Origin: Candidatus Dormiibacterota bacterium
GTDB taxonomy: Bacteria > Chloroflexota > Dormibacteria > Aeolococcales > Aeolococcaceae
DNA: 64,000 nucleotides
Direction: 5' to 3'
Assembly (NCBI GenBank): GCA_963718525.1
Contig: OY970355.1
Coordinates: 1,159,397-1,223,396, forward strand
The notes below the pieces were generated by a model. That model was given only the letters and a program-made list of their open reading frames with translations, had not been told where the DNA came from and ran no database searches. Positions 898 through 12,507 of this stretch are shown here, one piece after another (the stretch's first letter is position 1; the number at the start of each line of letters is the position of its first letter). The translations under genes and the position numbers were made by a program.

Positions 898-1743
898 CTA
901 CATGGAGGAGCCCGACCGCCCGTCGATGTAGACGGGATGATCGGGAGGCTTGCCCTCCAGCCAGTAGGCATCGAGGCGCTCGTCGGTCCAGCCCCGCGCA
1001 CGCAGGAAGGGCTCGTCGAGGATCTGCTGCCCCGTGAGCGACGGTGGCTCGGTGCTGACGATCTCCATCATCGCGTCGCAGAGGATGTCGGGCGAGCGCC
1101 ACTGGCTGCGGTCGCCAAGGCCCCAGTTGATGCTCGCAAGGCTCTCGATGATCGTCACCGGCCAGAGGGAGTTGCCGGCGATGCCGTCGGCGGCATGCTC
1201 CGCAGCGATGCCGATGGCGAGCCGTGTCATCCCCATCTTGGTGGTCATGTAGGCGACGTGACCGGGGCTGGGCTGCGTGCTGATCGGCGGAGAGCAATTG
1301 ATGATGTGGCCCCAATGCTGCTCGACCATGTGGGGCAGGGCGTAGTACGCGCACAGGTACGCGGCACGAACGTTGATCTCCCACATCAGGTCATAGCGCT
1401 TTGGCGGCGTCTGCAAGATCGACTGCCACCAGAGGGCGCCTGCATTGTTGATGAGGATGTCGAGCCGGCCGAAGCGCTCGATCGTCGCCTCGACCATTGC
1501 CTTGACCTCGTCCTCGTGGCGCACGTCGACACGCACCGCGAGCGCGGATCCCCCGGCAGCCTCGACCTCCGCCGCCACCGTGTGAATGCTTCCGGGAAGC
1601 TTGTCGGTGCCGCTCTCGGACTTGCCGGTGATCACGACGGAGGCCCCCTCGCGCGCTAGGCGGAGCGACATCGCCCGGCCGATCCCGCAACTCGATCCCG
1701 TGACCAACGCCACGCGGCCGTCGAGTGGACGTGGGGCACTCAC
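898..1743 (-). CDS. Short-chain dehydrogenase/reductase (SDR family oxidoreductase)
   Basis: Translation of ORF 898..2022 (-) contains GRVALVTGSSCGIGRAMSLRL (Rossmann TGxxxGIG), NNAG and a YxxxK catalytic region (YMTTK). The likely start is GTG at 1743..1741, overlapping the stop of the upstream HD gene (GTGA). Confidence 0.8.
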   Translation of the reverse strand: MSAPRPLDGRVALVTGSSCGIGRAMSLRLAREGASVVITGKSESGTDKLPGSIHTVAAEVEAAGGSALAVRVDVRHEDEVKAMVEATIERFGRLDILINNAGALWWQSILQTPPKRYDLMWEINVRAAYLCAYYALPHMVEQHWGHIINCSPPISTQPSPGHVAYMTTKMGMTRLAIGIAAEHAADGIAGNSLWPVTIIESLASINWGLGDRSQWRSPDILCDAMMEIVSTEPPSLTGQQILDEPFLRARGWTDERLDAYWLEGKPPDHPVYIDGRSGSSM

Positions 1744-2354
1744 GCGACGAAGTTCCTGATCGCGTCCACCAGCTCCGCGAGCTGGTCGGTCGGCGGGCCG
1801 GGCATACGTCGCTGGAGGATGCTCAACACGCTCGTGTAGTACCAGAGTTGCTCGTGCGGATCCTCGACGGTGAAGCGCTGCCACACTGCCGCGCCTTCGG
1901 TACGAAGGTCGGCAAGGATCGAACCCGCGTTGTGGATCTTGTCGCACGCCGACACCAGGAGCGCATCGCGATCGGCGTCGCGCTCGAGGTGGTCGAGATA
2001 TCGCTGTTTGCGCTCCTTCCATGGTGGTTTCGGCTCGCCCGGGACGGCGACGACGTCACTGCACGTCAGGACGATCCGCGCCACACGTGGGCCGAAGTCC
2101 TCCTCGAGGCGCCGAAGCATCGCGGCCCCGTCCTTCGAGTCCTCCACGGTGTCGTGAAGCAGCGCCGCGATTGCGACATCCTCATCCGCACCGTTCTCGA
2201 GCGCCAGCGCGCACACGGCCATGACGTGCGCCATGTATGGGATGCCGGTCTTCTTTCGCAGCTGGCGGCCGTGCACCTCCCACGCGACCACGAATGCCGA
2301 GGTGAACCGCTCGGTCAGCCGCGGGGCGGTGTTCGACTCCGGCACGCCGGTCAT
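1740..2354 (-). CDS. HD-domain phosphohydrolase, RelA/SpoT-type (candidate small alarmone hydrolase)
   Basis: C-terminal 204 aa of ORF 1740..3059 (-): ...HGRQLRKKTGIPYMAHVMAVCALALENGADEDVAIAALLHDTVEDS... This matches the SpoT/Mesh1 HD motif (H...HD...D). The ATG is at 2354..2352. The stop overlaps the SDR start (GTGA). Confidence 0.7.
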   Translation of the reverse strand: MTGVPESNTAPRLTERFTSAFVVAWEVHGRQLRKKTGIPYMAHVMAVCALALENGADEDVAIAALLHDTVEDSKDGAAMLRRLEEDFGPRVARIVLTCSDVVAVPGEPKPPWKERKQRYLDHLERDADRDALLVSACDKIHNAGSILADLRTEGAAVWQRFTVEDPHEQLWYYTSVLSILQRRMPGPPTDQLAELVDAIRNFVA

Positions 2355-2552
2355 TGTCCGTTGCGGCGGGCAGGTCATGAGGGTGCATGCGGTCTGGAGC
2401 CAGAATGGGGCGTGCGCTTCTACCTCGGCCATCGCCTCCCCGGAGGATTCTGGGCCGGCCTCTCGACCTACGGGAGGCGACCGCACCGCGCCGTCCGGCA
2501 GGCCGCGCACGCGACCGGTGGCATCGGATGCGTCGGTTTCGTCGTCCTGGTC

Positions 2553-2906
2553 GTGGTGATCGCGCTGGGGATCGCCTACTGGTACGTCAGCGTCCCGGTC
2601 CTGGTGCTCACGGCCATCGCCGTCGGTGTCACCGTGCACCGGCAGCATGTGCATCGGACGCGGCCGGCGCGCGTTGTGTCCGACACTCCCGTGCCTCCGC
2701 CGGTCCCGGTGGCACTGGCGGCGCGCGGGCAGCGCACCGCCAAGCCTCGCCCGCTGACCATGCCAGCGGACACCTTCAAGATCGGCTCGCTGGTCCACCT
2801 CGAGAAAGAGGGGAACCGCACGACGTACTTCGTCGACCACGGGCGGACCCCGGACGAGATCGTGCTCAAACGCGTGACGACGACGCCGATCGAGATGGAT
2901 GCCTGA
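2553..2906 (+). CDS. Small hypothetical membrane-anchored protein. The start is uncertain; alternatives are GTG 2553 or GTG 2412.
   Basis: 3' part of ORF 1725..2906 (+), beyond the antisense HD gene: hydrophobic helix VVIALGIAYWYVSVPVLVLTAIAVGVTV, then a His/Arg-rich segment and a soluble tail ...KIGSLVHLEKEGNRTTYFVDHGRTPDEIVLKRV. The stop TGA (2904..2906) overlaps the ATG (2899) of the downstream ATPase (ATGCCTGA), suggesting translational coupling. Confidence 0.4.
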   Translation: MVIALGIAYWYVSVPVLVLTAIAVGVTVHRQHVHRTRPARVVSDTPVPPPVPVALAARGQRTAKPRPLTMPADTFKIGSLVHLEKEGNRTTYFVDHGRTPDEIVLKRVTTTPIEMDA

Positions 2907-5334
2907 CGCCGCCCTGCTCGGTCTCGTGGTCGACCGTATCGCAGTCCGGCCGCCGGCGGACCCGGGGGGGCGCCTCGTGCTCGCGGCGTTCGGCGGGCCG
3001 GCGGCGGTTGACGCCGCCCTCCATGCCGAGTTCGAGCCGGCATCGGCGGCTGGTCCCAACGGAGCGACGGCACGGCCGCGCTCCGCCGTCTACCTCACGG
3101 ACATCGAGGTGGAGGGCTTCCGGGGCGTCGGACCGACGACCAGGCTGGCGATCGACCCGGGCCCCGGGCTCACCCTGGTGGTGGGCCGCAACGGGTCGGG
3201 GAAGTCCTCATTCTCCGAGGCTCTCGAGATGGTGTTGCTCGGCACCAACAAGCGGTGGGAGCAGCGGGTCAAGGTGTGGCGCGACGGGTGGCAAAACCTC
3301 CACCACCGCCACACGAGGGTCGTGGCCCGGTTCGCGGTCGATGGGCGCAAGCAGCCGCTCGAGGTCGCACGTGTCTGGAAGGACGGTGACGGCTTGGAAG
3401 GATCGACGCTGTTCGTCGACGGCAAGCCGGCCGACCTGGATGGGCTGGGCTGGGCGCACCCGCTCACCGGGTACCCGCCGCTGCTCTCCCACAACGAACT
3501 CGAACATGCCCTCGATCGCGAGCAGTCGAAGCTGTACGACGCGCTCGCCGGGATTCTCGGCCTCGGAGACCTCGCCGAAGCCCAGCAGGTGCTGCAGAAA
3601 GCGCGCCTTGCTCGCGAGCGCGAGGTGAAAGACGCACGCGAGGCACTGCCGGCGTTGCGCGCGTTGCTCGAAAGAACCTCGGACGAACGCGCGGCGCTGG
3701 TTCGCTCGGCGCTCGCTGCCAAAGTGTGGGATCTCGACGCGGTCTCGAGCACCGTCGGCGGCGACGCCGAGAGTGACGAGCGCAGCGTGCTCCGTAAGCT
3801 GCGCGATCTTGCAGGTCTGCCGGTGCTGGATCGCGACAGGCTCAACGCGGCGATCGCCGGCCTGCGTGATGCGCATGCGGCCACTGAGCGGCTGCGGGGC
3901 ACCGATGCCGGAAGGGCACATGAGCTGGCGGCGCTCCTCGAGCAGGCACTCGCCGTGCACGCCCACGCCGAGGACGAGCGGTGCCCGGTGTGTGGCACCG
4001 AGGGCGTGCTGACCTACCGGTGGCGCGTGCAGGCGCGCGACCAGGTCGTCGCGCTCCGGGTCGAGGCGGAGGCCCTTCGCACCTCCCGCCGCATGCTTGA
4101 GGATGCGATCCGCCAGGCTCGGCAGCTGATCACCGCACCGCTGAAGGCGTTGCGTGACGGCGCCGGCGCCGGTATCGATATCCACCCGGTGATCGCGCTC
4201 TGGGAGCGATGGGCCGAAGTTTCTGCCGATGATGACGCTATCGCGCTGGCCAGCAACCTCGAGACGCACGGTCCACCGCTTCTCGTGTCCGTCGCCGATC
4301 TGCGTCGGGCAGCCGCAGCCGAGCTCGAGCGGTTGGAGCGAGCATGGCGACCGGCCGCCGACGCGATTGCGTTGTGGCTGCCGCTGGGTCGTCGGGCGCA
4401 CGAGGCGGAACGGGAGATCAACGGGCTCAAGGATGCCGAGCGATGGCTCCGAGATGCGCACGACGAGCTGCGTGATGAACGCTTCCGTCCCATCGCAAGT
4501 GCGGTCCAGGAGAACTGGACGGCGCTGCGCCAGGACAGCAACGTCTCGCTCGGTGAATTACGTCTGCTCGGCGCGCAGACCCAGCGCCGACTCTCGCTCG
4601 ACGTCAAGGTCGATGGTGAGGATGGGTCCGCCCTCGGGGTCATGAGTCAGGGCGAGCTCAACTGCCTCGCGCTGTCGCTGTTCCTCCCGCGCGCGTCGAT
4701 GCCCGAGTCGCCGTTTCGGTTCGTCGTGATCGACGACCCGGTGCAGGCGATGGATCCGGCGAAGGTGGCCGGCTTGGCGACGGTGCTTGCGCGTGCGGCC
4801 AGGGAGCGTCAGGTCATCGTCCTCACGCACGACACCCGTCTCGCGGATGCCATGCGCGCGCTGGATATTGCGGCCACGGTGGTCGAGGTGGTGCGGCGCG
4901 AGCAGTCGGTCGTTGAGCTGCGCCGGATACAGGATCCCGTACAGCGCTACATCGACGATGCGCTTGCGGTTGCGATGAGCAGGGACGTCCCCGTTGAGGC
5001 ATTGCGGGTGATCCCCGGCTTCTGCAGGCTCGCGCTCGAGGCCGCGGCGGCACTCGCGGCGACGCGGCGCCTGCTGCGTCAGGGCACCGCGTACGCGGAG
5101 GTGCAGAACGTGTTGGCGAAGCCGACCACGCTGAACATGTGGCTGGCACTGGCGCTGTTGAACGATCCGGAGCGAAGCGGCGACGTGATCGGCTTCCTGC
5201 AGAAGCAGCATCCCTGGGCGGTCGATGCCGTCAGGGAGTGCAACCGCGGAACGCACAGCGGCAAGGTCTATGGCGATATGAAGGAGTTCATCCGCAGTGT
5301 CGAGCGGCTGACCAAGAAGATGCTCGAGCGTTGA
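2899..5334 (+). CDS. Rad50/SbcC-like SMC-family ABC ATPase with a central coiled coil and a CxxC zinc hook
   Basis: 811-aa ORF. Walker A is GRNGSGKSS (aa ~97–105). The ABC signature-like motif is LSQGELNCLALSLF. Walker B is FRFVVIDDPVQAMD, followed by an H-loop VIVLTHDTRL near the C-terminus. About 400 aa of Ala/Arg/Glu/Leu-rich predicted coiled coil lie between the head halves, with CPVCG (nt ~3982–3996, aa ~362) near the midpoint. The start is ATG 2899 (coupled to the upstream ORF). An alternative start is GTG 2977, closer to the conserved N-terminal β-strand (YLTDIEVEGFRGV). Confidence 0.8.
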   Translation: MPDAALLGLVVDRIAVRPPADPGGRLVLAAFGGPAAVDAALHAEFEPASAAGPNGATARPRSAVYLTDIEVEGFRGVGPTTRLAIDPGPGLTLVVGRNGSGKSSFSEALEMVLLGTNKRWEQRVKVWRDGWQNLHHRHTRVVARFAVDGRKQPLEVARVWKDGDGLEGSTLFVDGKPADLDGLGWAHPLTGYPPLLSHNELEHALDREQSKLYDALAGILGLGDLAEAQQVLQKARLAREREVKDAREALPALRALLERTSDERAALVRSALAAKVWDLDAVSSTVGGDAESDERSVLRKLRDLAGLPVLDRDRLNAAIAGLRDAHAATERLRGTDAGRAHELAALLEQALAVHAHAEDERCPVCGTEGVLTYRWRVQARDQVVALRVEAEALRTSRRMLEDAIRQARQLITAPLKALRDGAGAGIDIHPVIALWERWAEVSADDDAIALASNLETHGPPLLVSVADLRRAAAAELERLERAWRPAADAIALWLPLGRRAHEAEREINGLKDAERWLRDAHDELRDERFRPIASAVQENWTALRQDSNVSLGELRLLGAQTQRRLSLDVKVDGEDGSALGVMSQGELNCLALSLFLPRASMPESPFRFVVIDDPVQAMDPAKVAGLATVLARAARERQVIVLTHDTRLADAMRALDIAATVVEVVRREQSVVELRRIQDPVQRYIDDALAVAMSRDVPVEALRVIPGFCRLALEAAAALAATRRLLRQGTAYAEVQNVLAKPTTLNMWLALALLNDPERSGDVIGFLQKQHPWAVDAVRECNRGTHSGKVYGDMKEFIRSVERLTKKMLER

Positions 5335-5342
5335 AGCCTGAT

Positions 5343-5732
5343 ATGAACACCGTGGTGGACGCACATGCGCTGGTTTCGGCGGCGCGTGACCTCATCTGCG
5401 ACGACGATTCGACGACAGCCGGGCTCTGGCCCCGCGCCGCGGCGCTACTCGCGCGCCAGGGACTCGAGCTTGCCATGGCGGGGCTCTGGGAGGTAACGGC
5501 TCCCGGGCTGGAGCGAACCTCGACGCGATGTCAGTTGCTCTGTGTCGGCGACATGCTCAACGATCGCGAGCTCGGCGGCCGCGCGACGTTGACGTGGCGC
5601 TCACTCTCCAACGCCTGCCACCATCGCATCTACGAGCTGCCACCCACCGCGAGCGAGCTCAACATGGCCCTCGAGACGGTGTGGGACCTTGCGGAGTCAG
5701 TGGAGCGCGTGCGCGGGAGGATCCAGACGTGA
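5343..5732 (+). CDS. Hypothetical 129-aa protein (Cys/His-containing), third gene of the ATPase module
   Basis: In-frame ATG at 5343, 8 nt after the ATPase stop (5334). Sequence MNTVVDAHALVSAARDLICDDD...RCQLLCVGDMLNDRELGG...SNACHHRIYELPP... No recognisable family. Confidence 0.5.
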   Translation: MNTVVDAHALVSAARDLICDDDSTTAGLWPRAAALLARQGLELAMAGLWEVTAPGLERTSTRCQLLCVGDMLNDRELGGRATLTWRSLSNACHHRIYELPPTASELNMALETVWDLAESVERVRGRIQT

Positions 5733-5802
5733 GGCGCGGTCAACCTGTTGCCATGGTTCGACGCCGCGGTCTCGTCGTGCTCGTTTCCGGGACCCTCACC
5801 CC

Positions 5803-5852
5803 TTAGCACTCCCCCCCGCGCCCCGCTAGCAGTCAGGCATCGCGAGTGCTAA
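5803..5852. promoter_or_regulatory. CIRCE-type HrcA operator upstream of groEL. A 9-N9-9 element CTAGCAGTC-N9-GAGTGCTAA lies at 5826..5852. An extra perfect left half-site TTAGCACTC lies at 5803..5811.
   Basis: Direct reading: TTAGCACTC (5803–5811) ... CTAGCAGTC (5826–5834) aggcatcgc GAGTGCTAA (5844–5852). CIRCE consensus is TTAGCACTC-N9-GAGTGCTAA. It lies 46 nt upstream of the groEL ATG, which is preceded by an aggagg RBS. Confidence 0.7.
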
Positions 5853-5897
5853 ACTGAGCCCTGGAACCCAGGCTAGAGGATCAAACCAGGAGGAACC

Positions 5898-7508
5898 ATG
5901 GCCAAACAACTGCTATTCGACGTCGAGGCTCGGGCCCATCTCAAACGAGGGGTCGATCGGGTCGCGGACGCCGTGAAGATCACCATCGGCCCCAAGGGCC
6001 GGAACGTCGTGCTGGACAAGAAGTTCGGGTCGCCGACCATCACCAACGACGGAGTCACGATCGCCAAGGAGATCGAGCTCGAGGAGCCCTTCGAGAACAT
6101 GGGCGCCCAGCTGGTCAAGGAAGTGGCGAGCAAGACGAACGACATCGCTGGTGACGGGACCACCACCGCCACCGTGCTTGCCCAGGCCCTGATCGCAGCC
6201 GGCCTGCAGAACGTGGCCGCCGGCGCCAACCCCATCCAGCTCAAGAAGGGCATCGAGCTCGGCGTTGAGGCGATCGTCAAGGCGATCAAGGAGCAGTCGA
6301 TCCCGATCTCCGAGCGCGAGAAGATCGCTCAGGTTGCGTCGATCTCCGCGGCTGACCCCACCATCGGCGAGACAGTCGCCGATGCGATGGAGAAGGTCGG
6401 CAAGGATGGCGTCATCACCGTCGAGGAGTCGAAGGGCCTCGAGACCGAACTCGAGCTCGTCGAGGGCATGCAGTTCGACAAGGGGTACATCTCCGCGTAC
6501 ATGGTCACCAATGCCCAGCGCATGGAGGCCGTCCTCGAAGATCCGTACATCCTCATCACTGACAAGAAGATCTCGGCGATCGCCGACCTGCTCCCGATCC
6601 TCGAGAAGGTGGTCCAGAGCGGCAAGCCGCTGCTGATCATCGCCGAGGACGTCGAGGGCGAGGCGCTCGCAACTCTCATCGTCAACAAGCTCCGCGGCAC
6701 CTTCAACGCGGTTGCGGTCAAAGCCCCGGGCTTCGGTGATCGCCGCAAGGCGATGCTGCAGGACATCGCGATCCTGACCGGTGGCCAGGTGATCAGTGAG
6801 GAAGTGGGCCTCAAGCTCGATTCCGCGCAGCTCAGCTCGCTCGGCCGCGCCCGCAGCGTGACTGTCACCAAGGACGACACCACGCTCGTCGAGGGCAACG
6901 GCAGTAAGGACGCGATCAAGGGCCGCATCGAGCAGATCAAGGCCGAGATCGAGAAGTCCACGAGCGACTGGGACAAGGAAAAGCTCCAGGAGCGTCTTGC
7001 CAAGCTCAGCGGCGGCGTCGCCGTGATCAAGGTCGGCGCGCCGACCGAGACCGAGCTCAAGGAGAAGAAGCACCGCATGGAGGACGCCGTGTCCGCCACG
7101 CGCGCCGCTGTCGAAGAGGGCATCGTGCCTGGTGGTGGCGTCGTGCTCGTGAACGCGATCCCCGCGCTCGACACTGTGAAGGCCGAGGGCGATGTGCTCA
7201 CCGGCGTGAACATCCTCCGTCGCGCACTGGAGGAGCCCCTCCGCCAGATCGCGCAGAACGCCGGCATGGAAGGCTCCGTCGTGGTCGACAAGGTGAAGTC
7301 GCTCCCCAAGGGGCAGGGCTTCGACGCGGCCAAGGGCGAGTACGTCGACATGGTCAAGGCCGGCATCATCGACCCGACCAAGGTCACCCGTTCGGCGGTG
7401 CAGAACGCGGCATCGATCGCCGCGCTGCTGCTCACCACCGAGGCGCTGATCACCGACATTCCCGAGAAGAAGGGAGCACCGGCGGGTCCGCCGATGCCGG
7501 AGTACTGA
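5898..7508 (+). CDS. groEL: Chaperonin GroEL (Cpn60), apparently stand-alone groEL2-type with no adjacent groES
   Basis: 536-aa [42 protein letters not shown]...[15 protein letters not shown]... AGGAGG RBS 6 nt upstream. Confidence 0.97.
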
Positions 7509-7535
7509 TCGGCAACTGATTCGATTCCTGAAAGG

Positions 7536-7572
7536 GCGGTCCGGGATTCTTCCCGGGCCGCTCTCTTCTTTT
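7536..7572 (+). terminator. Rho-independent terminator after groEL
   Basis: gcggtccggg-attctt-cccgggccgc forms a 10-bp stem with one G·U pair, followed by a tctcttctttt T-rich tract. Confidence 0.6.
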
Positions 7573-7686
7573 GTCCGTATATCCGCGATGAGTTGATCAA
7601 CGATCGGCTACAACCCGGCGACGGCCGGACGCGCCTCGATCGACCCTGCGTAGATTCGACCTTCGAACCCACTCAGAGGTACTTCA

Positions 7687-8229
7687 ATGACCGACGCGCT
7701 GCCAGACGATTCGTTCGTGGAGTCAATGGGCTCCGGGTTGCTGCATCTCACCGGGATCGGGAGCCGCCTCGCGAAGCGCGAGACTGACGAGGAGCAACTG
7801 GACGCGCTCGACGGCAAGCTGATCACGGATCTCGGCCGGGAGTTTCACGATCGCGGCGACGAAGCCGCTCCAGGCCTCGACCTTGCGTCCGTGGCACAGG
7901 TGGATCCCGAATTCACACCGGACGCGTTCCTGCTCATCGCGAGAGATGCGTTTCGCGTCCTCCAGGACGCGCACACCGAGGGAGCACCGGCCCTCGACGC
8001 GGACATAGCTTCGGCAGAGGTCACGGCGGTCTCGATGGAGGGCGGGCGAGAGCGAGCTGTCGTGCGTTTCGGTATCACGGGCACCGCGGCGGTCACTCAG
8101 GATTGGACCTTCGAGCGCGACCCGTCGGTCGACACGACCACCGAGGACGAGGATCACGAGGTTGCCGACGGCGGATGGTTGGTCGCCCACCGCGGGTGGC
8201 GCCTCACAGGGATCGCAGCCGCCGCCTGA
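7687..8229 (+). CDS. Hypothetical acidic protein
   Basis: 180-aa ORF with RBS agagg upstream. No recognisable motifs. Confidence 0.5.
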   Translation: MTDALPDDSFVESMGSGLLHLTGIGSRLAKRETDEEQLDALDGKLITDLGREFHDRGDEAAPGLDLASVAQVDPEFTPDAFLLIARDAFRVLQDAHTEGAPALDADIASAEVTAVSMEGGRERAVVRFGITGTAAVTQDWTFERDPSVDTTTEDEDHEVADGGWLVAHRGWRLTGIAAAA

Positions 8230-8269
8230 AAAGCGATTGTGTCCATCATGGGCGCCGCGTGAGACGCCC

Positions 8270-9487
8270 ATGCTGAGCAATACCCGACTACCTGGCCCGT
8301 TCTCGCGCCTGCCCATTGCCTGGGTCATCGCGTTGGTCGTGTTCGTCCTGGCTGGCCTCAGCGCGCTCACCAAGAGCGGCGGTCAGCAGGCGCTGCTCCT
8401 GGCCGCCCTCGGTGTGATCCTCGTCCTTCGCGGAGCGACGGTCTTCTACCAGCGCCGGCCGATCGCGGGCCCGCCCCCGATCGAGCCGTCCTCCGAATCA
8501 CCCGCCCCTCCACGCGTTGTTGGAGCTCGGTCACCGTCAGCCCCAGTCTCGATCGCGACCGTCCCCGAAGTCCCCCAGACGGTGATCGAGGCGCGAGATC
8601 TCGCCAAGCGATACGGGCAGATCGTCGCGGTCGACGGAGTCAGTTTCTCGGTCGAGAGCGGCGAGATCTTTGCACTGCTCGGCCCCAACGGTGCGGGGAA
8701 GTCAACAACGCTCGAGATGCTCGAGGGGCTCCGGGACATCGATAGCGGCACCGCGCTGGTGCTGGGAACCGACATCAAGTCAAACGCCGTGGCCGTGAAA
8801 CGGCGCATCGGCGTCCAACTCCAGGCGACAGCGCTTCCGAGCTTCACGACCGTCCGAGAGTCGATCGACCTGTTCCGCGCCTTCTATGACCACACGCGCG
8901 ATACCGCAGATCTCCTCGTGGAGTTTGACCTGGTTGCGCAGGCGAAGCAGGTCACCACAAAGCTCAGCGGGGGCCAACAGCAGCGGCTCAGCATCGCACT
9001 CGCCATGGTCAATGATCCCGACGTGGTGTTTCTCGACGAGCCGACCACCGGCCTCGATCCCCAGGCGCGAATCTCGTTGTGGGGCTTCATCGAACGTTTC
9101 CGGAGCCGTGGCAAGACGGTGATGCTCACCACGCACTACATGGAGGAGGCGGAGCGGCTGTGCGATCGCGTCGCGGTCATGGACCAGGGGCACATCGTGG
9201 CGCTCGATACGCCGGACCGCCTGGTGACATTGCACGCACCGGGCACGACGATCTGCTTCACGAGTCCGCACCCAGACGCGGAAGGACTGCGTGCGTTGAC
9301 CGGTGTCGAATCGATTGAGGTCGACGCTGGAACAGTGCGCATCGTCACACGGACTCCCGAGACCGTCCTCGCGCAGTTGCTCCACCCTGACAGCCCGGAG
9401 TCGCACGGGCTTAGCAACCTGCGCGTGGAACGGGGCACGCTCGAAGACGTGTTCATCGCTCTGACCGGGCGCGACCTGCGCTCATGA
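8270..9487 (+). CDS. ABC transporter ATP-binding protein with an unusual N-terminal transmembrane and Pro-rich extension
   Basis: In-frame ATG 8270 after the upstream stop. N-terminal helices (LPIAWVIALVVFVLAGLSAL, ALLLAALGVILVLRG). Then Walker A GPNGAGKST, signature LSGGQQQRL, Walker B VVFLDEPTTGLD and an H-loop TTHYMEEAE. Confidence 0.85.
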   Translation: MLSNTRLPGPFSRLPIAWVIALVVFVLAGLSALTKSGGQQALLLAALGVILVLRGATVFYQRRPIAGPPPIEPSSESPAPPRVVGARSPSAPVSIATVPEVPQTVIEARDLAKRYGQIVAVDGVSFSVESGEIFALLGPNGAGKSTTLEMLEGLRDIDSGTALVLGTDIKSNAVAVKRRIGVQLQATALPSFTTVRESIDLFRAFYDHTRDTADLLVEFDLVAQAKQVTTKLSGGQQQRLSIALAMVNDPDVVFLDEPTTGLDPQARISLWGFIERFRSRGKTVMLTTHYMEEAERLCDRVAVMDQGHIVALDTPDRLVTLHAPGTTICFTSPHPDAEGLRALTGVESIEVDAGTVRIVTRTPETVLAQLLHPDSPESHGLSNLRVERGTLEDVFIALTGRDLRS

Positions 9488-10572
9488 GGGCATGGTTCGC
9501 TCTCGTCAAGACAACCGTGCGAAGCAGCTTCCGAAACCGTGCCGCGCTGATCTTCACGCTGCTCATTCCGATCTTCCTCATGGTGCTGCTCGGCAACGTG
9601 CTCGGTGGTGGGAATGCGTCGGTGAACATCGGCGTTGTGAACCAGGCCTCCACCCCGTTGAGCACGGCATACGTGGCGACGCTCAAGAACGAGAAGAACC
9701 TGGTGGTCGAGCAGGGAAATGCTTCGAAAGAGTTGAATCGTCTCCAGCACGACAACGTGGTGGCTGTGATTGTGATCCCATCGACCTTCGGTGCCCAGTG
9801 TGCGACCGGATCTTCGTGTCCAAGCCCCGCTGTGAGCCTTCACCTCGACAGCAACGACCCGTCGAATTCGCAAGTTGCCGCCGCGATCATCGCCGCCGTG
9901 ACGAGTGGATTCGCCCAGACGGCCCACCTCGGTGGCTCATCCGGAATCACCCTCACCACCACCGAGGTCGGCACGCAGAACATCACGTCCATCGACTACT
10001 ACCTGCCATCGATGATGGCCTACGTCGCAGTTCTCGCCGGGCTGACCTACGTCTCCATCACGATCGTCGATCAGCGTGAACGCAACGTCCTTCGCCGTTA
10101 CCGGGCCACACCGCTCCACCCGCTGCAGGTGCTGGGAGCCGCCATGACCGGAGGTGCGGTCACGGTTGCTCTCGAGGTGGCAGCGCTCGCGCTTGTCGGC
10201 GTCTTCATCTTCGGCGCGCGTGGGCACGGCAGCTGGCTCCTTGCTGTGATCGCGCTCGTGGTCGGGATCGCCAGCTTCGTCAGCATGGGATTCCTGCTGA
10301 CGTCATTTGTCAGCACCAGTGATGCGGCCCGGGGGATCTCGACGCTGATCGGGTTTCCCATGCTGTTCCTCAGCGGCATCTTCTTCCCGGTCGATGCCCT
10401 GCCACAGTGGATCCAGAGCATCGTCCACGTCCTCCCGGTCTACTACGTTTCCGACGCGCTGCATCAAATCCTCAACTCGGGCACCGGACTCCCGCTGCTC
10501 GACGTCGTGGTGCCACTCGCCTGGGCGGCGGGATGCTTTGCGCTCGCCACCTGGCGGTTCCGCTGGGAGTAG
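9484..10572 (+). CDS. ABC-2 family transporter permease
   Basis: ATGA overlap with the upstream ATPase. Polytopic membrane protein with a typical ABC-2 type permease pattern. Confidence 0.8.
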   Translation: MRAWFALVKTTVRSSFRNRAALIFTLLIPIFLMVLLGNVLGGGNASVNIGVVNQASTPLSTAYVATLKNEKNLVVEQGNASKELNRLQHDNVVAVIVIPSTFGAQCATGSSCPSPAVSLHLDSNDPSNSQVAAAIIAAVTSGFAQTAHLGGSSGITLTTTEVGTQNITSIDYYLPSMMAYVAVLAGLTYVSITIVDQRERNVLRRYRATPLHPLQVLGAAMTGGAVTVALEVAALALVGVFIFGARGHGSWLLAVIALVVGIASFVSMGFLLTSFVSTSDAARGISTLIGFPMLFLSGIFFPVDALPQWIQSIVHVLPVYYVSDALHQILNSGTGLPLLDVVVPLAWAAGCFALATWRFRWE

Positions 10573-10576
10573 CGGC

Positions 10577-10972
10577 TCAGGAGCAGGTGGTCGCCCGGTA
10601 CGAGGCGTTGCCCAGGTCCGGTGCGGCCTTACCGGTCACGGTGATCGTCGAGGCGCGGGCAGGCGGTGCGCAGCCTCGAGGAAAGACGATGAACACGCTC
10701 CGTGCGCCCGCAGAGATGTAGCCGTCGCAACTCGTGCTGTTGCACTGATAGGGCTCGAAGCTTCCCGAGAGCGTTGTTGTCCCGTCCGGAGCCACTGACC
10801 TCACCGGGTTGGCGAAGAGCCCCGTGAACCCGACGACGAAGAGGACAGCGATCACCAGCACGGCAAGCACCACCACGGGAACGCCCCAGACCGGCCGGCG
10901 CCGTAAACGCTCGGCGTGGTCCGTTGGGGACTGCACCAGTGCCTGCTCGGTGGTGCTCGGCGGATTCTCCAT
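10577..10972 (-). CDS. Small Cys-rich membrane-anchored hypothetical protein
   Basis: 3' 131 codons of ORF 10577..11377 (-): MENPPSTTEQ...RRPVWGVPVVVLAVLVIAVLFVVGFTGLF (TM), then CNSTSCDGY...GCAPP...TTCS. ATG at 10972. Confidence 0.45.
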   Translation of the reverse strand: MENPPSTTEQALVQSPTDHAERLRRRPVWGVPVVVLAVLVIAVLFVVGFTGLFANPVRSVAPDGTTTLSGSFEPYQCNSTSCDGYISAGARSVFIVFPRGCAPPARASTITVTGKAAPDLGNASYRATTCS

Positions 10973-10999
10973 TGCACTGGTACGGTACCGAAGTCCGCC

Positions 11000-11770
11000 A
11001 TGCGGCAGCCGATCGTCTTCGTCACCGACTTCGGGCGCGACGACGCGTACGCGGCGTCGCTGGTTGGCGCTGCCTGGCGCGTCGACCCGCACGCGATCTG
11101 CGTGGAGGGGACCCACGGCATTCCGCCGGGAGACGTGCTCGCCGGCGCCTACCAGCTCAAGGCGCTGGCGCGAGCGTTCAGCGGAGGTGCCGTCTTCTGT
11201 GCCGTCGTCGATCCGGGGGTGGGAACCGCGCGACGAGCGATTGCCGTCAAGGCGGGAAGGATCCGCTGTGTGGCGCCCGACAATGGACTGGTGTCGTACC
11301 TCTGGGACGAGGCGGCGGCGGACGACCGCCGGGCGGTGAGCATCGACGTCAACGCCGACGCCTCGCCGACCTTCCACGGTCGCGACGTGTTCGCCCCGTT
11401 CGCCGCCGAACTATCGTCGAACCAGCGGTTCGACGTCGCCGGCGACCTCATCGATGAGCCTGTCGTCCTCGCCGCAGCATTCGCACGGCGGGTCGGGAGC
11501 CGGATCGCTGGGCGAGTTGCCGTGGTCGATCACTTTGGCAACGCGATCACGACCATCCGTGCCGCGGACATCGAAGGCGCCACCGTTCGCGCGGTGACAT
11601 GGCCGGGAGGTCGCTCCTCGGGGTTGGTGTCGACATATGGCCACATCGACGCCGGCCCCGCCGCGGTGCTCGGGAGTGCGGGACATGTGGAGATCGCGGG
11701 CCGGGGTGTGGCCGCTGCCGCCATCGGCGGCCCCCGGCTGGGCGATGGAGTGGAGGTCGAACTCGCGTGA
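11000..11770 (+). CDS. SAM hydroxide adenosyltransferase family protein (DUF62; related to fluorinase/chlorinase SalL)
   Basis: MRQPIVFVTDFGRDDAYAASLVGA... N-terminus and ...VDHFGNAITTI... are characteristic of the DUF62 SAM hydrolase family. Confidence 0.7.
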   Translation: MRQPIVFVTDFGRDDAYAASLVGAAWRVDPHAICVEGTHGIPPGDVLAGAYQLKALARAFSGGAVFCAVVDPGVGTARRAIAVKAGRIRCVAPDNGLVSYLWDEAAADDRRAVSIDVNADASPTFHGRDVFAPFAAELSSNQRFDVAGDLIDEPVVLAAAFARRVGSRIAGRVAVVDHFGNAITTIRAADIEGATVRAVTWPGGRSSGLVSTYGHIDAGPAAVLGSAGHVEIAGRGVAAAAIGGPRLGDGVEVELA

Positions 11771-12507
11771 CCGCACACCCCGACGGCGCTGGAGCGCTCG
11801 GTGACCTCACCTCCGAGCAGGTGGCGCGGCTCGACGCCGCCGCCCTCGAGTGTGGCGTGGCCACGACGCAGCTCATGGAGATCGCCGGATGGCAGGTGGC
11901 GCGGTGCGCCTGGCACCGGCTTGGCCGCCCGAGGGGCGTGCGCGTTGTCGCCGGATATGGCAACAACGGAGGCGACGGCCTGGTGGCGGCGCGACATCTG
12001 TCGACCTGGGGATGTGCGGTACGGGTGCTCGTCCTTGGCGATGACGCGCGCGTCATCGGCGTGGTGCGCGACCATGTCACCTCGGCGCGAAGGTGCGGTG
12101 TCGACGTCACCGTGGACAACGATCCCGAGGCCGTGCGCGAACTCGTCGACAGCGGGGCTGAACTGGTCGTGGACGCGATCCTCGGCACCGGATTGCGGAG
12201 CGCGCCTCGCGAGCCTCAGGCCGGCGCGATCCGCGCACTCAACGAGTCTCGTCTCCCAGTCCTTGCCGTCGACGTCCCGAGCGGCCTGGACGCCACGACC
12301 GGTGAGGCATTCGACCCCACCATCGTCGCAGCCTTGACGTGCACGCTGACCGCGATGAAGCGGGGTCTGCGACAGGGCGACGGTGCCCGGCACGCGGGCG
12401 AAGTCTGGGTTGCGGACATCGGCATGCCCACCGGTGCCTGGCTCCGAGCCGGGCTCGAGCGACCAGCGCGTGTCACCGGCGGTGAGTTGGTGCACACTTC
12501 GTCCTGA
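11767..12507 (+). CDS. NAD(P)H-hydrate epimerase (YjeF N-terminal domain)
   Basis: GTGA overlap with the upstream gene. VRVVAGYGNNGGDGLVAARHL motif (GxGNNGGDG) of the YjeF_N family. Confidence 0.75.
   Translation: MTAHPDGAGALGDLTSEQVARLDAAALECGVATTQLMEIAGWQVARCAWHRLGRPRGVRVVAGYGNNGGDGLVAARHLSTWGCAVRVLVLGDDARVIGVVRDHVTSARRCGVDVTVDNDPEAVRELVDSGAELVVDAILGTGLRSAPREPQAGAIRALNESRLPVLAVDVPSGLDATTGEAFDPTIVAALTCTLTAMKRGLRQGDGARHAGEVWVADIGMPTGAWLRAGLERPARVTGGELVHTSS

Follow-up and report, generated by a model that had tools for sequence, protein, structure and literature searches.

A CPVCG-bearing coiled-coil ABC ATPase and its small partner protein in Candidatus Dormiibacterota: a putative RloC-like two-gene module

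A stretch of 64,000 nucleotides from Candidatus Dormiibacterota bacterium (GenBank assembly GCA_963718525.1, contig OY970355.1, positions 1,159,397 to 1,223,396 of the forward strand; hereafter the window, numbered from its first letter) encodes a coiled-coil ABC ATPase of 811 amino acids on the plus strand (2899..5334, stop codon included). The gene is delimited by the open reading frame (ORF) list, by Pfam matches and by full-length coverage in homologues, and its product carries an invariant CxxC pair, in the form CPVCG, at the predicted turn of a helical hairpin. Directly downstream lies a small gene whose product is probably a paralogue of the C-terminal domain of the ATPase itself, and the two genes form an obligatory pair with a patchy distribution over several phyla. 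A slight balance of probability favours a conserved two-gene module that has the ATPase as its large subunit and in which an RloC-like, hook-regulated ATPase switch would control an RNase-like effector. Hooks of this kind are already familiar, also outside DNA repair. Judged by the literature and libraries that were accessible, what appears to be new to the RloC/Lamassu theme is the fused tail combined with its obligatory paralogue.

The motif is encoded by TGC CCG GTG TGT GGC at 3982-3996 of the plus strand, giving C362-P363-V364-C365-G366. Codons and residue numbering thus agree with a preliminary description of this DNA, which had also correctly placed the motif midway between the Walker A (residues 96-104) and the signature/Walker B (583-613) halves of the protein. 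Both cysteines are kept by orthologues, a point on which that description had asked how the family behaves: the CxxC is retained in 120 of the 120 closest database homologues (52-98% identity) and stands at the aligned position in each of 150 representatives with 37-54% identity. In the merged homologue alignment (344 sequences; effective number of sequences, Neff, 223; identity down to ~37%), C362 and C365 are 100% conserved, followed by P363 (98%), V364 (94%) and G366 (82%), while the neighbouring columns are variable. The ATPase has only five cysteines in total, and a CxxC would be expected by chance about 0.03 times in 811 residues. The real evidence against a chance occurrence is, however, the conservation. 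Two residues outside the motif are also well conserved, namely W375 (4021-4023; 99%), ten residues past the hook, and H354 (3958-3960; 83%), eight residues ahead of it. They may serve in packing of the hook or as an additional metal ligand. Position 357 is a histidine in 44% of the 344 sequences and an alanine (A357) in the window protein.

The only invariant potential metal ligands in each chain are C362 and C365. A conserved four-ligand site within one chain is unlikely because H354 is conserved to 83% and His357 to 44% only, and with two invariant ligands per chain the simplest way to complete a tetrahedral zinc site would therefore be for a second chain to contribute its CxxC. CPVCG is accordingly interpreted as a zinc-knuckle or zinc-hook motif whose metal would join two chains. 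The preliminary description had spoken of a Zn-mediated dimerization apex. The placement of the CxxC and the invariance of its cysteines speak for the apex, whereas the Zn binding and the dimerisation are what we infer from sequence.

In the full-length AlphaFold2 model (mean predicted local distance difference test score, pLDDT, 84.8), the helices of the arms span residues 222-354 and 373-543, and nucleotides 3961-4010 (residues 355-371) encode a non-helical loop between helices 336-354 and 373-389. The hook loop as a whole comprises residues 355-372 (3961..4014) at a pLDDT of ~71, and residues 361 and 368 form a beta-bridge around the CPVCG. The ascending arm (residues 205-354; 3511..3960) consists of helices 222-259, 312-333 and 336-354 and is interrupted at ~263-305. 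The descending arm (residues 373-545; 4015..4533), delimited from the AlphaFold2 model, periodicity and covariation bands, includes a 97-residue helix (447-543). Averaged over the family, a hydrophobic periodicity of 3.5 residues holds along 80% of the ascending and 92% of the descending arm at a level above the 95th percentile of shuffles. It breaks down at residues 265-294 (3691-3780) and 428-440 (4180-4218), some 65-95 residues before and after the hook, and both arms are split into short helices where the heptad periodicity is lost. The breaks stand at similar distances from the hook, where they would lie opposite one another in a hairpin. The matched breaks suggest an elbow or joint, or else a three-helix segment, like the folding points of LmuB, and the arm is probably kinked or three-helical in its middle.

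Covariation between the two arms, scored as mutual information with average product correction (MI-APC), points in the same direction. The top inter-arm pairs lie on anti-diagonals: 348-387, 341-394, 341-397, 329-400 and 353-373 (i+j ~726-738) form one band, 256-489, 233-514, 217-521 and 260-482 (i+j ~738-751) a second, and 323-455 and 312-462 (i+j ~774; midpoint near 387) a third. Over all bands the midpoints lie at residues 362-389. The first two, which link the helices of the hairpin and those next to the head, centre at 362-375, and the pairs named for them put the reversal point at 363-376. This signal for antiparallel pairing is suggestive. Taken together, the AlphaFold2 model, periodicity and covariation support an antiparallel helical hairpin with the CxxC at its turn. 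Of the antiparallel coil with a hook apex that the preliminary description had postulated, the loop between helical arms and the 3.5-residue periodicity thus stand, with covariation lending suggestive backing only.

Past the head, the ATPase continues into a C-terminal domain of ~135 residues (678-811; 4930..5331), which is all-helical in an AlphaFold2 domain model (pLDDT 85). Four of its positions are nearly fixed in the 344 sequences: R710 (5026-5028; 100%), E714 (5038-5040; 98%), H786 (5254-5256; 99%) and G784 (93%). The small gene (5343..5732, plus strand) starts 8 nucleotides past the stop codon of the ATPase gene and encodes 129 amino acids in the window and ~125 across the family. It directly follows the ATPase gene in 78 of the 79 loci with downstream sequence (75 recognized by tblastn, 3 by hidden Markov model (HMM)) and, lineage-level synteny aside, this small helical protein is the only neighbour conserved across 82 loci. 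The sole exception is locus L044 (3948-6197), where the ATPase match ends at residue ~733 and neither the C-terminal domain nor the small gene is present; the paralogous modules have apparently been lost jointly, or else this copy is decaying. Within the small protein W29, E42 (5466-5468), W85, S89 and H93 (5619-5621) are invariant, and R38 (5454-5456) is near-invariant.

Comparison by hhalign of a 104-sequence C-domain alignment with the small-protein alignment gave a score of 36-39 over 108-134 columns (probability 74-86%, P ~1e-5 to 1e-6). In the match R-x3-E falls on R-x3-E and N-R-G-x-H on S-x-A-C-H, whereas the controls, comprising a reversed profile, 20 column shuffles and other helical segments of the ATPase, all scored at or below 20. 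The small protein is therefore a probable paralogue of the C-terminal domain. The preliminary description had overlooked both the C-terminal triad domain and its downstream free-standing paralogue, which set the locus apart.

The conserved residues of the pair invite comparison with known ribonucleases. In the small protein, the pattern R38-x3-E42-x50-H93 fits the Arg-X3-Glu-X36-52-His triad of the RloC/PrrC anticodon nuclease (PMC2610378). In HEPN proteins, the core consists of four up-down helices with an insert separating helices 2 and 3, an acidic residue in helix 2 and the catalytic histidine at the end of helix 3 (PMC3710099). The helix order of the C-terminal domain fits this layout: its acidic residue lies in a long helix, which is followed by an insert, and its histidine ends the penultimate helix. 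The top Foldseek matches of the domain in the PDB are HEPN toxins (8xdj, 8yuf, 7ae8, 6m6w, 5yep, 1wwp, 7bxo), although none of the HEPN matches is significant (all E 0.6-3, TM 0.3-0.45), and its top structure match in BFVD is a phage HEPN protein. From this combination of triad and fold the C-domain/small-protein pair may be RNase-like.

The ATPase head is of the SMC/Rad50 kind. The P-loop GRNGSGKSS (residues 96-104; 3184..3210) is 99% conserved at G96, G101, K102 and S103; the ABC signature SQGEL (583-587; 4645..4659) is 100% conserved at S583, Q584, G585 and E586; and the Walker B and D-loop segment FVVIDDPVQAMD (608-619; 4720..4755) is 100% conserved at D612, D613, P614, Q616 and D619, as is the H-loop histidine H644 (4828..4830). 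The Walker B is of the hhhhDD type (VVIDD), with an aspartate instead of a glutamate as second acidic residue and both aspartates invariant, so that slow hydrolysis and poor turnover are predicted, as has been argued for LmuB. Pfam assigns the protein to SMC_N (1.5e-17), AAA_21 and AAA_23; its sequence matches head domains of Smc and Rad50 in the PDB; and a Foldseek search of the PDB with the full-length model returns the heads of Smc, Rad50, cohesin, condensin and JetC (E 5e-13 to 1e-8). Ahead of the P-loop stands an N-terminal helical domain of ~60 residues (1-60; 2899..3078), predicted as three helices by AlphaFold2 and conserved in the family at L6, L9, V10, R13, P18, P19, A29, A30 and F31, with no Pfam or PADLOC match. 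Members of the family bear generic database names such as AAA family ATPase, RecF and EcfA2.

Hook-bearing relatives of Rad50 are found in several settings beyond SbcCD/Mre11, contrary to the rarity assumed in the preliminary description: RloC, with its HEPN-type anticodon nuclease (Davidov & Kaufmann 2008, Klaiman et al. 2012), Lamassu LmuB and the CxC-type ABC ATPases such as PbeC all contradict it. RloC combines a Rad50-like ATPase, interrupted by a coiled-coil/CxxC insert, with a C-terminal anticodon nuclease and occurs in 72 of 850 bacterial genomes (PMC2610378). The nuclease is governed by the hook and by a DNA-dependent ATPase (PMC3458546). The window ATPase resembles RloC in its length of ~800 residues, in an ABC head split by a coil with a central CxxC, in a C-terminal helical domain with Arg-x3-Glu...His, and in a lateral spread without an obligatory restriction-modification partner but with occasional linkage to restriction genes. 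However, the match to Pfam AAA_13 reaches only 31.6 bits against a gathering threshold of 36 and covers profile positions 493-573 only, the signature/Walker B stretch. No PADLOC match to RloC or PrrC reaches the C-terminal domain, the PrrC match (0.0023) lying at the Walker B only. RloC, moreover, acts as a single gene. Here, in contrast, the nuclease-like domain has an obligatory free-standing paralogue. Membership in RloC is thus not demonstrable by sequence comparison.

The best match to a defence HMM is that to PADLOC LmuB (PDLC03859; 1.4e-22, 78.7 bits), with mad3, an ATPase-only family, near-equal at 78.4 bits, and the ATPase coil alone matches the LmuB HMM at 5.5e-4. Many Lamassu LmuB proteins carry CPxCG-type hooks (PMC10586767), and one system depends on the LmuB hook for its defence (bioRxiv 10.1101/2025.03.14.643221). 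Lamassu structures place LmuC and the C-terminal domain of LmuA at the hook region (bioRxiv 10.1101/2025.03.14.643221). The long LmuB proteins have ~800 residues, a Walker B of the hhhhDD type and always one CxxC, in a system present in 15% of genomes; some short LmuB function without a hook, and Lamassu clades without LmuC or an effector domain exist (PMC12663957). With 811 residues, VVIDD, one CxxC and arms that are interrupted and probably kinked, the window ATPase is similar to long LmuB. It differs in adding the N-terminal 60-residue and C-terminal 135-residue domains, which at ~800 residues overall implies a shorter coil than in long LmuB, and in having as partner a ~125-residue paralogue of its tail. 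Neither the window neighbours nor the C-terminal domain or small protein has a PADLOC match to LmuA or LmuC.

Likeness to Rad50/SbcC lies in the ABC head, whose Walker A, signature, Walker B and H-loop are 99-100% conserved, in the antiparallel coil and in the CPxCG-type apex. However, with ~150-170 residues the arms are far shorter than those of Rad50, the Walker B has DD versus DE, and the terminal domains are extra. The NCBIfam models of Rad50 and SbcC match far below their cut-offs (best Rad50 match 23.4 bits against a cut-off of 700), and no Mre11/SbcD-type partner is conserved among the neighbours of the 82 loci. On the evidence of these profiles and neighbourhoods, the window ATPase should not be classed as a Rad50 or SbcC. 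In a Dormibacterota locus (L036, 102-4354) the module is directly preceded by a 395-aa gene (102-1286) and a 1023-aa SbcC-type gene (AAA_23, SbcC_Walker_B), a pair that can be read as sbcD-sbcC in an operon separate from the module. The presence of sbcCD beside it implies that the hook ATPase is additional to the canonical SbcC and no replacement for it.

Two other groups of hook or SMC-like ATPases are less close. PADLOC lists PDC-S06 (PDLC04888-04895), a single-gene phage-defence candidate of ~850 residues that is similar in length and layout and has its signature/Walker B ~160 residues before the C-terminus, where its HMMs match the window ATPase at 1e-15 to 1e-12. It differs in that the ATPase C-lobe alone aligns, with no detected similarity in coil and tail, and the two may be sister families that differ in their tails. 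The CxC-type ATPases such as PbeC, a sister of DndD, share a coiled-coil ABC ATPase with an apical zinc hook used against invaders and form another hook-bearing clade (PMC10853773). They differ in their CxC hook and in an obligatory DndE-like ribbon-helix-helix (RHH) partner, and the PbeC and DndD HMMs match the window ATPase weakly and in the P-loop region only. The literature on PDC-S06 and on Rad50-like/HEPN defence systems does not describe the present family, although the ABC-ATPase classification of Krishnan et al. 2020, which lies outside that literature, may name the clade.

The family is large and scattered. An exhaustive profile-free search returned 4233 representatives at E<=1e-3 and 920 clusters (50% identity) at E<=1e-30, and nearly all of the best 150 of those representatives are ~810 residues long and match over their full length. 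The best homologue is 98% identical to the window ATPase, and more than 100 orthologues have 52-98% identity. A scan of one genome per species gave at least 578 loci, which among the matches listed belong to Dormibacterota, Actinomycetota (Streptomyces, Nocardia, Blastococcus, Pseudonocardia and Planosporangium), Acidobacteriota, Gemmatimonadota, Chloroflexota and a few Proteobacteria. In locus L047 (Tepidiformaceae, 5980-8765) both genes have a GC content at third codon positions (GC3) of 0.78-0.82 versus 0.97-0.99 in the flanking genes, which indicates a recent horizontal acquisition. A gene for a GmrSD type IV restriction enzyme (GmrSD_N + GmrSD_C) lies immediately upstream of the module on the same strand in seven Streptomyces loci (at 3916-5586 in L038; L045, L046, L048 and L050 are others). 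PLD-helicase-DUF3427 genes stand upstream in L035 and L028, and matches to BrxH, Mokosh and type I restriction endonucleases, integrases and transposases occur near some loci. A context of mobility and defence is argued from the spread over at least five phyla, the low GC3 in L047, and the GmrSD, PLD-helicase-DUF3427 and transposase genes nearby.

A working scheme along the lines of RloC and Lamassu can be drawn up from these elements. Two ATPases would be joined by zinc at the tips of ~20-nm arms, as in Rad50, RloC and LmuB, and the heads of this hook-linked dimer would bind ATP and sense a nucleic-acid cue, for example DNA ends or foreign DNA. Engagement of the heads, dependent on ATP, could then reposition the C-domain/small-protein pair, which is probably a heterodimer with a composite active site. 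This would switch on a metal-independent RNase and bring translation or growth to a halt, in abortive infection or in a stress response. The scheme is thus RloC-style in its working, except that the nuclease-like module would be split into one fused and one free copy. Of its parts, the RNase activity, the trigger and the defence role are what we infer from this analysis. Its most specific form, a widespread two-gene immune or stress module in which hook dimerisation, ATP and a DNA cue gate a composite RNase heterodimer, is put forward tentatively and is possible rather than probable.

The interest of the family stems from the emergence of zinc-hook SMC-like ATPases (Lamassu, RloC, Rad50) as sensors of foreign or broken DNA, and from its abundance in soil phyla that have been little studied for immunity. 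If the pair is indeed an RNase, it would represent a new effector wiring to an SMC-like sensor, by a fused domain and an obligatory paralogue, and would offer a simple two-gene system for the control of an effector by hook state and ATP. A composite RNase module of this kind would further form an evolutionary and mechanistic bridge between Lamassu, with its separate effector, and RloC, with everything in one chain. If the pair is non-catalytic, the family would be one more hook-bearing LmuB/RloC-like ATPase.

Several observations weigh against the RloC-like reading. The paralogy of tail and small protein is lost when a shallow C-domain alignment of 20 sequences (Neff 2.3) is compared with the small-protein alignment; because the match needs a deep alignment, the paralogy is probable, short of certain. 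The spacing in the C-terminal domain (R710-x3-E714-x71-H786) is 71 residues, outside the 36-52 of RloC, owing to two insertions. C-domain and small protein have no Pfam, PADLOC or meaningful PDB sequence-profile match, and the canonical HEPN motif Rx4-6H is absent from them, the nearest being [N/S]-R-[G/A]-x-H (R-x2-H), in which R783 is 50% conserved. This absence and the insignificance of the Foldseek matches keep the HEPN/RNase assignment hypothetical. The antiparallel arrangement was tested indirectly, by periodicity and covariation, and the band statistic of 2.49, against a parallel maximum of 2.26, is reached by 18 of 300 column permutations (p ~0.06). H354, at 83% conservation, could help to bind a metal within one chain. 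Finally, in Dormibacterota the synteny near groEL and an HD-domain gene is conserved, which is less like a defence island, and across loci the neighbours are mostly unrelated housekeeping genes.

Part of this evidence suits other explanations. The ATPase could be a divergent long LmuB whose C-terminal domain and small protein act as non-catalytic adaptors or latches, like LmuC and the LmuA C-terminal domain, the effector having been lost or lying elsewhere. LmuB being the best PADLOC match, the shared length, hhhhDD and single CxxC, the existence of Lamassu clades without LmuC or an effector domain, the location of LmuC and the LmuA C-terminal domain at the hook region and the lack of any significant nuclease-fold match all agree with this. 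We nevertheless regard it as unlikely, as neither C-domain, small protein nor neighbours have a LmuA/LmuC match in PADLOC, no third gene is conserved, and a near-invariant R...E...H in both paralogues is more typical of catalysis than of docking. Similarly improbable is a housekeeping factor in genome maintenance or stress, a DNA-bridging ATPase like Rad50, SbcC or RecN whose hook tethers ends and whose small partner is regulatory. The SMC/Rad50-like head with its hook, the stable groEL/HD_4 synteny in Dormibacterota with more than 100 orthologues at 52-98% identity, and the adjoining sbcCD in L036 would be in keeping with such a role. It is contradicted by the lack of a conserved Mre11/SbcD-type nuclease partner, by NCBIfam Rad50/SbcC matches of 23 bits versus 700, by the patchy phyla, the atypical composition in L047 and the recurrent restriction-type genes nearby, and by the Walker B DD, which predicts poor turnover. 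The RloC-like switch accounts for the motif itself as an intermolecular hook, and here too there are alternatives. CPxCG is a generic zinc-knuckle consensus and not specific to Rad50, so the CxxC could form an intramolecular zinc knuckle with H354 and H356/357, or a redox-sensitive disulphide, with any dimerisation taking place elsewhere; the 83% conservation of H354, the histidine at 357 in 44% of sequences and the short LmuB that work without a hook fit this. Only the Cys pair is invariant, however, and the placement at the turn of the arms equals that of the hooks of Rad50, RloC and LmuB, which makes the idea unlikely as well. An intramolecular Cys2His2 site in particular was rejected, its second histidine being missing in more than half of the family, including the window protein. 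That the CxxC arose by chance in a helical linker and has no function has nothing in its favour except the shortness of the motif, and is refuted for practical purposes by its retention in 344 of 344 sequences with varying flanks.

The surroundings of the module in the window are no defence island. They comprise a divergent gene for an HD_4 (RelA/SpoT-type HD) hydrolase, an SDR gene and groEL (5898-7508). The HD_4 hydrolase gene lies divergently upstream at ~1740-2370 on the minus strand, an arrangement also found in another Dormibacterota locus, L001, which shares the rest of this synteny too; the mechanically called HD_4 ORF (1740-3059) runs over into the ATPase gene. A third module gene of ~430 residues, considered from L001 and L002, was rejected, as it is represented by different genes in the two loci (one with no Pfam match, the other a trypsin-PDZ protease) and is absent from the window. 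In L001 four genes (8922-12121) separate the small gene from groEL, namely a 425-aa gene without a Pfam match, a YbjN-like gene and two small genes, where the window has a gap of 165 nucleotides (5733-5897), and the difference in spacing implies an indel of ~3.3 kb between the two relatives.

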